The notes beneath the pieces are model-generated. The model saw only the letters and a program-made list of their open reading frames with translations. It made no database searches and was not told the DNA's origin. A DNA stretch of 62,623 nucleotides, the filler included, from Diploschistes diacapsis (Eukaryota), in NCBI GenBank assembly GCA_023645945.1. It is 14 parts of 14 records of this genome, joined end to end, with 100 filler letters (N's around TTAATTAATTAA, not from the genome) between each part and the next. Parts side by side here need not be neighbours in the genome. Positions count along the whole stretch, not along the records: positions 36,019 to 40,394 come from JALAIB010001719.1; 13 more parts are not named here. The stretch is one strand, 5' to 3'. The translations under genes were made by a program, and so were the position numbers. Of this stretch, positions 35,919 through 40,494 are shown in pieces (the stretch's first letter is position 1; each line of letters starts with the position of its first letter).

Positions 35919-36501
35919 NNNNNNNNNNNNNNNNNNNNNNNNNNNNNNNNNNNNNNNNNNNNTTAATTAATTAANNNNNNNNNNNNNNNNNNNNNNNNNN
36001 NNNNNNNNNNNNNNNNNNCCCCCTAAACTACAACGCTGTTGTAGTAGTGCTTACCACCCACACCACCCACCAATTTAGACCTTAGCTCCTTCTACCGAAA
36101 TCCTCACTCACTCATCCTTCTCCTTCTCCTTCTCCTCTTCTTCACCTTTGTCGCTTTTCTCCTTCATCACCTTGCCCGCCGCCACAAGGTGCCTGTATTT
36201 TTGTTGCCCTTCTGAGGCTGTCCACTCCTTTCAAAGTAATGAGTCGTTGCATACTGCACGCGTCTTCTATTCTACCTAATTGACCTCTAGTCACTCATTT
36301 AACTACCAAGCCATACACCTAGTACATCCCCCTAATATCGAACAAGTTCAGAGAAGTTCAAAGGCAAAAGCAGCTTCTAATCACGCAAATCATACTATGC
36401 AGTCACTTTGAACCGAAGAAAAAGCCTTTAATACTGCCATACTCGGAAATCTACAGCTCGCTTTGCTTCAAATCTCGCTCGAATCTCGCTTTGTCTGAGC
36501 A

Positions 36502-38727
36502 ATGTCTGCCATACACGCAAGGTCTCATGAACGACATGGCCAACTCCACGCTCACCACCTCGGATACCCAATAGCTCCTGTACCTGCTGCTACCGTACAC
36601 GATAATTCCTCGCCTGTTGAACTGGTCCGCCGAGAAACTTCTTCGGCAAGCTCTACAGAGTCCTCTGGCACGAACCTTACCATCCCCGTAGCAGTCGGTG
36701 TTACGTATGTACTGACAGCTCCATCTCCGAGGGTCTCGTACTAATCCACTTTCAGCGTTCCGATAGTAATCATTATCATAATATTCTTCTTCGTACATCG
36801 GCGTCATGCCAGCAAGCTGCGTCTGGAGGATCAGAATGACCCGCACAAGTCGTTGGACTTCGGCATGGACTCTGCGAGCAACAGCCGTAAGAATAAAGGT
36901 GGAAGATCTCCGGAAATGGCGCAGAAGGACTTTGAGAAATCGCTAAGGCGAGGTCGGGGTTTGTCGGTAGATTTGTCGGACATTAACAACCCATATCTGC
37001 TTCCCCCGGGCATGCAGGGCTCCCGCGAATCGCTCCATTCGCTATCGAGGACTATGGAGCACGGCTCGCACGACCCTTACCGACCCGCTACCACCTTCAG
37101 CCCTTCCGCTGGCAGTTCTTATCAAGGCTCAAGGCTTGACGATGCTTCGTCGACTCGCACAGGATCTACGGGACCGCGCTTTGGCCGGGATGGCATGAAC
37201 TCGCAGGCTAGCCTCGTGCGCAATGCTCAAAAAATGTCTGCTAGCTCGCCCATTTCCTCTTCCAATCAAGGACTCCATTCCATTAAGGAGCGCCACAACC
37301 AGAGCGATGCAGTGCAGCCCCCTCAGCCAGTCCACATCTCTCCACCGGCAGTTGACTCTCTGGCTAGAGATTCATATGCCGGCCAAGACGCCCAAGCGAT
37401 CCGCCAGAGCAACAACTACCTTGCAGGTTTCATCCGCAGCCGCGAAGCATCCATCGAAAGGGCAACGTCGGCGAGTTCCGAGCAGAATCTCACTCCTCGT
37501 AGCCCACCTCCACCTCAAAGTTCGCCTGCTGTCCATAACTTTTCTCGGAAACAGTCCCTCCAGAGGGACCCTGTCCCATCAATTGTTGTAGGAAAAGAGC
37601 CAGTGCCTGGTCATATCCACGAGATGCCCGATCCTCAAAACTCCGCTCACAGTACCCTACCGTCACCGAACCCGGACAACTCTACACCTTTCTATACTCC
37701 CACCGAGGAGCGCAGCGAGCGATTCGGGGTGCAGGACGCAAATGGTCTCGGCGTCGCTAATGTCGGGCTCGACAACAAGCGTCTGTCAATTATGAGGCCC
37801 CTTCCGCCTGATGATCCGACCGACAACGCCGAGCAAAGAGCCAACCGCATCCGATCCTTCTACAAGGAATACTTCAAAAGCGATGAGCCTGCTCGCGCAT
37901 ACCAGCCTAACGCGGCAGACTACTACGAAGACTATGGTCAGGAATATCAGGGCGACAGCACCACGTACGACCCCAATAGCAGAAAATTCATCGTCACCCA
38001 GCCGCCATTCGCCGAACCGATCACGCGCCGCGCCATGACCCCACCACCGCGAGCACCACCGCGTTTCCAGGGACGCGCTAACCAGCAGAACGGCTCCACG
38101 CCCGGGAGCCCTGTCATGGGTCGCTCACGAGCTTTCTCTTCCGTGTCGACTTCCCATGTGGCCCCGGGCGGTTCTCGTGGCGCTGCTAAACGACCTGTTC
38201 CGCCTCCAGCTCCTCTCCGTACGCTTCCAACCCCTCACCTTCTCAAAGATGACTCCTTCATCACAACGTTGCCAATCGATTTCGCTCCGCCACAAAACTT
38301 CAGAGATCAAGCAGCGGGTCGCCCTGAGAGCCCGCGGGGCGAATTCCGCCCCTACTCGCCACAAGTTCCAGTTGCAAGCCCTCTGGCGTCTTCGTTCAAT
38401 GAACTGGCCGCCATGCCTAGCCCGTAAGTTTTTCTTGAGCATTCTTTTTCCAGCAAACACTGACCGATTGCAAGGCACGCTCTCCGAAAATCAGGAACTT
38501 TTACCGCACTCGACTTTGCCCCACCTCCACGCTTCCGCAACGAGGATAGCGCTTCTGATGCCGGCAGTGTTCGCAGCGGACGCAGCAACCACAGCAGTCG
38601 ATCTGCCGCGCAGGTCCACAACATCCGTGCCGGAACGTACCGTGTCAGCCGGATACCGACGGGGCTTGTTGGTACTAGCAAAGAATTTTCGGAGAGTCTG
38701 CGACCGACTTGGAAAGTTGGATCCTGA
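36502..38727 (+). CDS. Conserved fungal single-pass membrane protein with a long Pro/Ser-rich cytosolic tail; introns 36705-36755 and 38424-38474
   Basis: TM IPVAVGVTVPIVIIIIIFFFVHRR, EDQNDPHKSLDFG, PDDPTDNAEQRANRIRSFYKEYF, SPHALRKSGTFTALDFAPPPRF. Confidence 0.8.
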
Positions 38728-39276
38728 ACTGCTTGTCTGTTGTCCCATATTTGCAAACACATTAGGGACACACCCCTTAGCCAACGGTTTCGGACAATTC
38801 TGACGGCATGAACATAGATTAGGGACGGTAGAATGGCGCTTCTGGTTTGTTGCATACAGGCAGGGTCATTCTGTCAAACCCGGCACCGTGTGTGGGAGAG
38901 ACACCCCGTTCGACCTTGGGGGGGTGATGAGCTGAGTATGAAAGGGGTATTTAATACAGAGCAAAGGTGAAAAGTCCGATAGCCTGGTAAGATAGGAGGA
39001 TGGCAAAGCAGTACATGGATATCTCTAATTCTTTGTACATATTAATGGGAGCGCGGTCAAAACAATATAAAAATATTCTGCTCGAAACAAAATATAATCT
39101 TTTGATTTGTGCATCAAGCCCCGCATAGTTGATCCAAGATTCCCCGTGAAGTCTATTTATAAAGGGCAGATTCTACTTGGCAATCCGGAACTACAAGAAG
39201 CTTATAGAGACTCCTGCTTAGCGAACTGGCATCGTTTATTCAGTAAAAACGATCAGTATCTATCAGCGCAACAGCA

Positions 39277-40170
39277 ATGGTCTACTATTTCACCTCCACC
39301 ACCACCGACCCCCCAGCAACGATATACGTCGGCAAGGACAAGGTCGAGAGTGAGTAGGCTGTACAGACTGAAGCCATCCCAGCTTTTTGTGGTAGGAGTC
39401 GATTAACGAGCCTTCGTGTGAATAGACGAGGAATTAATTAAATATGGATGGGAGGAGGACGTGTGGTGCGTAACGAGCACACTTCTTCTTATCTTTGACC
39501 ACTGCCTTGCTAAATATACTGACGCTCTATACAGGGTTCGTCTAACCCCCTTCCAGAACATCCCCAGCACCGAGCAGGGAAGCGGGAACTGCACCTCGTC
39601 CAGTCCTTCTACGTCCAACATGTCCACCAGCCATGCATAATCGCGCGACCTCCGCCAGCAGCAAGCAGCATCTAAAGCAACGCCCGTGGTATCACAAGCG
39701 CTGATCAATCCCTATCGCTGACTGTGGAGCTAGTTCCACGCCGACAACCTCTCCTCCGCGCACATCTACCTCCGGCTGCAGGACGGCCAGGTCTGGGACC
39801 AGTTACCGAAGGATTTGCTGGAGGACTGCGCGCAGCTGACGAAGGCGAATTCGATTGAGGGTATGTTTGCTGTCAGATTTACTCTCTGCGCTCTGTCTGT
39901 CGTCTTGCCCCCTTGGCAAAAGGATACGTCGGGCGGGGGCTGTGGGAGGGAGCATTTGGTCTTTTTATATTTCCCGGGCTGTGGCAGTGATGGACAGTGC
40001 TGAGCCGTAATGAGTCTAGAACCTGATTGAAGGAGCTTTTGCTGATAAATCTCTTTTTGGGCGCAGGAAACAAAAGGGATAATGTGACGATCATCTACAC
40101 GCCATGGTCGAATCTGAAGAAGGATGGGTCGATGGCGGTCGGGCAGGTGGGATTTCATGACCAGAAGCTG
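39277..40170 (+). CDS. JLP2: CCDC25/Jlp2 (NFACT-R/DUF814), exons 39277-39349, 39426-39465, 39535 (1 nt), 39734-39860, 40067-40170; 3' truncated
   Basis: [88 protein letters not shown]. Confidence 0.92.
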
Positions 40171-40494
40171 GTAAGTACCAAGAGTGTGCACACGTGAAGT
40201 GTTGCAGGTCTATGGCTGCGATGGGAGTCTGCTATTCTACCAACAGCGCCGTCATCGTCACTACCACCATACCATCACCACCACCACCCAGCATCACCCT
40301 CTAATCTCTGTCTTCCGGTCTCACCAATTGCAGCTCTCTCCTCCTTTTTTTGGTACTATCTATCCAAGTCTACCCAGTACCTCTGTCATCACCCNNNNNN
40401 NNNNNNNNNNNNNNNNNNNNNNNNNNNNNNNNNNNNNNTTAATTAATTAANNNNNNNNNNNNNNNNNNNNNNNNNNNNNNNNNNNNNNNNNNNN

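Follow-up and report, generated by a model that had tools for sequence, protein, structure and literature searches.

Introduction

An exon of a single nucleotide has been reported in the Arabidopsis gene APC11 (Guo & Liu 2015, PMC4674806). Like the putative exon described here, in the CCDC25/JLP2 gene of a lichen-associated ascomycete, the APC11 exon is one constitutive base between two spliceosomal introns, is critical to the reading frame and was first missed by annotation (PMC4674806). The APC11 case concerns a plant and a different gene and was tested with GFP fusion constructs, whereas the CCDC25 exon is known from sequence comparison and public records (PMC4674806). In fungi, a one-nucleotide exon in the Fusarium P450 gene CYP621A was called the second example overall and the first fungal one (Nelson & Syed 2026, PMC12940212). 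CYP621A and CCDC25 are both fungal nuclear genes in which an AG-G-GT arrangement surrounds a G that completes a codon of a conserved motif; in both, misfitting exon phases are the clue, the composite is ~2x the usual intron length and automatic annotation misses the exon (PMC12940212). The G is the middle base of a Gly codon in CYP621A but the third base of a Trp codon in CCDC25, whose domain is NFACT-R_1 and not a P450 (PMC12940212). While the CYP621A exon is described from the genus Fusarium and close allies, that of CCDC25 is much wider, occurring in Penicillium/Aspergillus relatives, lichen fungi and others; lineages in which one or both introns have been lost, seen for CCDC25, are a further difference from CYP621A as described (PMC12940212).

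Long-read annotation of Coprinopsis cinerea includes 13 one-base exons, in genes that are not named in the text or supplements searched (PMC12230235). These resemble the CCDC25 case in showing repeated occurrence of one-base exons among fungi and damage to gene models when they are left out, but Coprinopsis is a basidiomycete whereas the hosts of the CCDC25 exon are ascomycetes (PMC12230235). A related phenomenon is the stwintron, described together with a model of one-nucleotide intron shift (Fekete et al. 2017, PMC5587772). Stwintrons and the CCDC25 locus both have two fungal U2-type introns at one site and share consecutive splicing, predicted for CCDC25, and in both the shift model and CCDC25 related species have introns one base apart or have lost one unit; in a stwintron, however, the outer intron has a splice motif broken by the inner one and nothing between them is kept, whereas the CCDC25 introns are complete and a base is kept (PMC5587772).

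One-base exons as such are already known. We found no publication linking CCDC25, JLP2 or DUF814 to a micro-exon or one-base exon, subscription journals being outside the scope of the search; in CCDC25/JLP2 the exon seems to extend across several filamentous ascomycete classes.

Results

The window carries the first exons of a CCDC25/JLP2 gene

The window, the whole stretch of DNA analysed here, is 62,623 bases long and consists of 14 pieces of ~4.4 kb. Between each piece and the next stands a linker, TTAATTAATTAA with 44 N on either side, and the 26 runs of N lie across positions 4434-58294. The CCDC25/JLP2 gene lies in the piece at 36019-40394 and is truncated at 40394, inside the intron after its fifth coding exon, so that the visible part comprises the first five coding exons with the single G counted as one (Table 1). 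Upstream of it, on the + strand at 36745-38427, is a Ser/Pro-rich open frame of 560 residues, possibly carried on in a second frame (38039-38803); a Pfam search with this frame returned no family.

Table 1. Exons, introns and splice motifs of the CCDC25/JLP2 gene in the window (a slash marks an exon border).
Feature	Position	Strand	Description
Exon 1	39277-39349	+	ATG to ...GTC GAG A; 24 protein letters; then donor GTGAGT
First intron of gene	39350-39425	+	76 nt, GTGAGT...AATAG; removal gives ...KVE/NEELI... as in homologues
Exon 2	39426-39465	+	40 nt; 13 protein letters + TG; ends GAC GTG TG, the last two being Trp-codon bases
Cryptic in-frame donor	39461-39466	+	GTGTGG, formed by Val-Trp codons; with acceptor 39733 deletes Val-Trp
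Intron A	39466-39534	+	69 nt; donor GTGCGT, branch motif CTGAC 39519-39523, acceptor ACAG
Putative one-base exon	39535	+	G completing TGG (Trp) in VWFH motif
Intron B	39536-39733	+	198 nt; donor GTTCGT, branch motif CTGAC 39718-39722, acceptor CTAG
Next coding exon	39734-39860	+	127 nt; 42 protein letters + G; starts TTC CAC GCC GAC
Intron after this exon	39861-40066	+	206 nt, GTATGT...GCGCAG
Following exon	40067-40170	+	104 nt; 34 protein letters; then donor GTAAGT

Over all exons, the match to the Pfam family NFACT-R_1 (formerly DUF814) spans profile positions 1-112 and places the protein in this family. Exon 39734-39860 alone scored 39.6 bits (E 8.4e-10), above the cut-off of 29.8 bits; exon 40067-40170 alone matched positions 78-112 under the cut-off (25.7 bits, E 1.7e-5), and exon 1 gave a weak match to positions 1-21. 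PF05670 is present in all 120 homologues listed, many of which are named CCDC25 or DUF814, and the closest proteins among them are fungal CCDC25/DUF814 proteins with identity of at most 83%; for exon 39734-39860, identity to CCDC25/DUF814 homologues and related loci is 71-83%. The NFACT-R_1 match and these closest proteins support the naming of the gene as CCDC25/JLP2; the contigs examined show this gene at one locus.

A single G lies between two complete introns

Exons 1 and 2 together encode 37 protein letters, followed by TG. Beyond them a single base separates two complete introns, each with its own donor, branch motif and acceptor, and in both introns the branch A of CTGAC sits 12 nt before the intron end. 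Intron A interrupts the Trp codon after TG, and intron B separates the Trp codon from the Phe codon. With the G at 39535 the exons join as VW/FH using standard GT-AG sites; without it a frameshift is followed by a stop. The G is thus needed for both the frame and a conserved codon, Val and Trp each showing at least 90% conservation when 24 full-length homologues were aligned with the window's 42-residue exon, and no other standard splice solution preserves the protein. Splicing from the cryptic donor to the acceptor at 39733, the one alternative that also keeps the frame with GT-AG sites, drops Val-Trp. We consider it very probable that in this lichen-associated ascomycete the G at 39535 is a real one-base exon of the CCDC25/JLP2 (NFACT-R_1) gene and that its inclusion is obligatory. 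Since positions 39466, 39535 and 39733 are all G, mature mRNA alone cannot show which G is kept.

Re-reading of the sequence bore out the preliminary description of this region (39426-39745) in all its exon and intron coordinates and splice motifs, in its claim that the one-base exon is obligatory, this being the only route with standard splice sites to the near-invariant Trp, and in its claim that skipping the G breaks the frame. It had likened the layout to a stwintron with the G retained, and this too is correct, as each intron is complete by itself and the intervening base stays in the mRNA; for the same reasons, and because no motif of either intron is interrupted by the other and both are complete before splicing, the locus is not itself a stwintron. 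Two points need amendment. The in-frame alternative from the GTGTGG donor had been overlooked, and the statement that retaining either intron breaks the frame does not hold, since both introns are multiples of three in length: retained intron A is in frame and stop-free and adds 23 residues, while retained intron B introduces in-frame stops.

When the window's 259-nt interior was shuffled 5000 times with dinucleotide composition preserved, AGGGT occurred in 7% of the shuffles, and a branch motif followed by YAG-G-GTNNG in 0.18% of 5000 shuffles. An Rfam search for a structured RNA or snoRNA in intron B gave no match at E up to 1, and the intron folded no better than its shuffles (z = +0.66).

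The layout recurs in related loci

A query alignment headed by the window's 42-residue exon was used to scan metagenome contigs. Of 583 matching stretches, 562 encoded a relative, and the best 80 were analysed. Exon 2 could be located upstream in 77 of the 80; the other 3 loci had too little upstream sequence. The same conflict of phase as in the window, a donor that immediately follows TG and an acceptor that immediately precedes TTC or TTT, was found in 47 loci (38 distinct sequences), a plain between-codon intron (TGG/GT...AG/TTC) in 7 loci (7 distinct sequences), and no intron (TGG TTC) in 23 loci, in which Val-Trp is encoded without interruption.

Every one of the 38 distinct phase-conflict sequences has an internal AG-G-GT, as the orthologue comparison suggested in the preliminary description required; with the window the count is 39/39, and in the 38 the site lies 47-76 nt in. 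One sequence has a further, implausible AG-G-GT candidate. By dinucleotide shuffling, 2.57 of 39 sequences would be expected to contain AGGGT, the highest count over 500 rounds being 8, and AGGGT is found in 0 of the 7 plain between-codon introns. Since 38/38 phase-conflict loci carry AG-G-GT against 2.6/39 by shuffling, the layout is, on this comparison of sequences, not a product of chance. The first intron of the pair measures 45-74 nt (median 56) in the 38 related loci and the second 49-133 nt (median 59; 198 nt in the window), and most of the split introns have a YTRAY-type branch motif. Retention of either intron alone leads to a frameshift or a stop in 38 of the 39 distinct sequences, the exception being the window's intron A.

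The lengths of the second introns leave remainders of 0, 1 and 2 on division by three in 3, 16 and 20 of the 39 sequences; among first introns, 13/39 are multiples of three. The scarcity of multiple-of-three second introns may be due to shared ancestry or to selection against retention that does no harm, these being counts without phylogenetic control. Three of the loci with a plain between-codon intron (L064, L078 and L079) have a very short one, of 34-35 nt, and form a well-supported group of their own (SH-aLRT 98).

An independent contig has the same junction

Six public runs are listed as containing the window's DNA, five tagged 'DNA?' and one of unspecified kind, all as contigs; they comprise a lichen metagenome (possibly the source), a relative labelled organism A, a rock metagenome and organism B, and the list includes no RNA run. 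The window comes from a metagenome assembly, and we compared it with a contig of a relative from a different study (run X2), which covers the whole junction with 18 substitutions over 39150-39887. There are zero indels in 39150-39508, where 4 of the 9 substitutions have no listed position, so that the donor of intron A is not confirmed base by base. All 9 substitutions in 39512-39887 are listed; none falls within 39530-39541 or 39728-39740, and the G at 39535 is unaltered. Length changes are confined to the introns: intron A has 45 letters in place of 3, and intron B differs by one deletion and one insertion. Contigs from two further runs (X3 and X4) are fragmentary, do not cover 39503-39544 and have no bearing on the G. 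Since the independent contig from another study has the same layout, the one-base-exon arrangement is, as far as the two assemblies speak, not an assembly error; a G missing at 39465 or 39734, which the preliminary description had named as what would overturn it, is thereby excluded. The 45 letters that replace 39509-39511, a net gain of 42, bring intron A of the X2 contig to 111 nt, again a multiple of three.

Public gene models stumble at the Trp-Phe junction

Among the best 120 homologues of the window's exon listed, W/FH is correct in 48 and wrong in 72. The N-terminal motif GKDK is present in 75 listed models or open reading frames (ORFs), 36 of which are aberrant at the Trp-Phe junction. 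Some models lose Val-Trp (...D/FH...). Others treat intron A as coding and end in Arg (AGG = AG + G) before FH, as in Lasallia pustulata (P0019) and Penicillium odoratum (P0027). In a third type, seen in several Penicillium models, intron A is removed and the exon continues into intron B (VWV...), and the DNA of a Penicillium-like locus (L011) matches this read-through.

A second protein search, with the N-terminus as query, added 116 short records, for a total of 236 over both searches. Among these 236, 15 ORFs terminate immediately after the Trp, as expected if TG precedes a donor such as GTAAG, GTGAG or GTAGG; 18 records continue into intron A, 14 give W then V, and 5 have Cys instead of Trp. 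Taxa named among the junction records include Aspergillus niger, Trichoderma gamsii, Fusarium, Letharia, Toensbergia and Hypocenomyce. The expected work-arounds occur in models of Eurotiomycetes (Penicillium, Aspergillus) and Lecanoromycetes (Lasallia, Letharia, Toensbergia, Hypocenomyce), and in Sordariomycetes a Trichoderma model reads beyond the Trp codon, which fits a donor after TG. As read from the records, these errors are of the kinds that a one-base exon would cause. A tblastn of transcript-like public proteins against the one-base-exon loci gave no near-identical pair; the only close pair, P0067 with L024 and L025, is intronless at the junction site.

Several individual records are of interest in their own right. 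P0107, an ORF on a 54.9-kb public contig, has ...S-L-I-I-R directly before FHADK in uninterrupted DNA; if its Arg codon is AGG, the species would have only the Trp-codon intron, the second having been lost. Among the 77 evaluated loci this state occurs in none. In P0127 and P0133, TG is joined straight to the next exon, skipping the G, and the sequence is then frame-shifted; P0133, an 88-residue 'DUF814 domain protein' of Aspergillus calidoustus, is probably a mis-modelled truncation. P0065, P0066 and P0115 (Aspergillus luchuensis and two Penicillium) have D-V-C-V-L... and end in C-R or S-Q before FH; read from the protein alone, a 3' stretch of the first intron has likely been turned into a mini-exon in P0065.

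Aspergillus fumigatus records match the mature and a half-spliced form

The A. fumigatus records examined are predicted proteins of public assemblies, not reads, and the DNA of intron A itself is not among the data. P0011, an intron-free A. fumigatus sequence, has VW/FHVDN, the mature form, while P0212, on a 477-kb contig, shows that the genome of this species carries the first intron of the gene; P0011 and P0121 would therefore derive from spliced RNA. P0121 has the N-terminus of P0011, with exons 1 and 2 joined, and after DVW reads V-C-F-P-P-Y... This tail corresponds to the second intron and the next exon in the frame set by TGG. The tail and the genome-derived P0004 (M-S-G-F-V-S-H-P.../FHVDN) can be written by one DNA in two frames over 42/42 codons, whereas 200 shuffled tails fitted over at most 6 codons. 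On the strength of this two-frame fit to P0004, P0121 would represent a half-spliced transcript, with TG already fused to the lone G and the 73-nt second intron still in place. Thus the preliminary description's prediction of a mature VW/FH product and of an intermediate lacking only one intron finds both forms in a proxy species, as predicted-protein records. From this one record, intron A would be lost first in at least some A. fumigatus molecules, and a single intermediate of this kind hints at an upstream-first order of removal. We also considered a plain between-codon intron for P0004 (M-S-G) and P0001 (T-P-G before F-V); by the genetic code it would read T-[S/F/Y/C]-G, and it was rejected.

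One-base-exon loci are scattered among ascomycetes

A tree of the two flanking conserved exons was built from 75 columns and 88 rows, with 45 of its 83 inner branches unresolved. Loci with the one-base exon adjoin Penicillium, with 72-74 of 75 residues identical, and also fall inside a supported group with lichen fungi of the Teloschistales; the placement of unnamed metagenome contigs follows nearest-neighbour labels. They are scattered through this weak tree, on which at least 8 state changes are needed. The scatter, together with the named public models, points to an origin before the divergence of several ascomycete classes, the 75-column tree being too poor to name the ancestral state.

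Discussion

We propose that the junction consists of two ordinary short fungal introns one base apart. Short fungal introns are usually recognised individually, and each of these two would be recognised on its own. The acceptor of intron A and the donor of intron B overlap, however, in the five bases AG-G-GT, which should make their simultaneous handling impossible; because of these shared bases, introns A and B would be removed one after the other, and whichever went first would leave an ordinary intron behind. The predicted product, GTG TGG TTC, restores the near-invariant VWFH motif. Precise loss of intron A from such a locus would leave a plain between-codon intron, loss of intron B an in-codon intron, and loss of both an uninterrupted TGG TTC. 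The one-base exon looks like a frozen accident without a role beyond correct decoding, kept because the Trp is needed.

Recursive splicing proceeds through ratchet points, zero-length exons with the sequence AG-GT in long animal introns. As would be the case in CCDC25, the upstream exon joins a site that serves as, or rebuilds, the donor for the second step; a ratchet point retains nothing, however, whereas in CCDC25 one base is retained and the introns are short. The site is not a recursive splice site in the sense of a zero-length exon, its sequence being AG-G-GT with the G required in the mRNA, but by analogy the mode of action is likely similar, differing in the one base retained.

Other explanations of the junction have to be set against this one. 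The interruption could be a single standard intron from GTGTGG (39461) to 39733, the true protein then lacking Val-Trp (...EED/FHAD...). This deletion is in frame, uses GT-AG sites and is the route taken by several public models, among them P0006, P0009, P0034, P0038, P0039, P0044, P0048, P0054, P0089, P0097 and P0117. Nevertheless, it removes two residues conserved at 90% or more, which are encoded without interruption in the 23 intronless loci and present as VW in the mature A. fumigatus record P0011, and it gives no account of an internal AG-G-GT with its own branch motif in 38/38 distinct loci. Sister species from the same annotation source even disagree, P0003 and P0008 having VW and P0009 lacking it, which looks like an annotation artefact, and we hold this single-intron reading to be most improbable. 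An identical mature mRNA would result, given the three Gs at 39466, 39535 and 39733, if a 267-nt intron were removed in one step with the non-standard borders TG...AG (39467-39733) or GT...TA (39466-39732), the internal AG-G-GT then being irrelevant. To our knowledge, neither TG...AG nor GT...TA is among the known splice-site classes GT-AG, GC-AG and AT-AC. Moreover, 39/39 distinct sequences, against 2.6 expected, keep the AG-G-GT along with the donor of the second intron and the branch motif of the first, both halves have the length of a typical fungal intron, and P0121 is the half-spliced form that the two-intron model alone predicts. One-step removal is accordingly very unlikely. As for an artefact, in the form of a base missing next to 39465 or 39734, or a decaying pseudogene, the window stems from a metagenome assembly, and the sole run with all its words may be its source. 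The independent X2 contig is nonetheless indel-free at both exon borders, the phase conflict is repeated in 47 other loci, and every exon is an open frame, with 71-83% identity to homologues, which leaves this account a practically negligible probability.

A further reading, raised as a possibility in the preliminary description, would not replace the one-base exon but add to it a regulated checkpoint, in which frame-shifted mRNA lacking the G is removed by nonsense-mediated decay and CCDC25 output is tuned in this way. Skipping the G does give a frameshift and an early stop, the public records P0127 and P0133 (the A. calidoustus model) skip it, and single-intron retention shifts the frame or meets a stop in 38/39 distinct sequences. 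But either record may be a prediction rather than RNA, P0133 being a gene model and P0127 a sequence of uncertain origin; early stops would arise similarly from any mis-spliced short intron; and the window's own intron A is harmless when retained. We consider such regulation unlikely.

A broader proposal built on the one-base exon is, in our view, possible though somewhat less likely than not: that the exon predates the split of several filamentous ascomycete classes, that the need for one Trp codon has preserved it over hundreds of millions of years, that it provides a natural source of one-base 'intron sliding' without a stwintron, and that its splicing is obligatorily ordered, upstream first, like a recursive site that keeps a base. 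The locus would give fungi a second and far more widespread example of an exon of minimal size, here in a conserved gene, and the exon would explain the wrong junction in a large share of public ascomycete CCDC25 models. Its hosts include well-studied fungi (Aspergillus, Penicillium) in which the spliceosome's handling of introns one base apart, the order of their removal and one-base differences in intron position could be studied. The combination of misfitting exon phases and an internal AGGGT also makes it a test case for annotation pipelines.

AGGGT also occurs in the window's gene as ordinary donor context at the border 39857-39866 (GAG G/GTATGT). A G on either side of a splice site is the usual preference.
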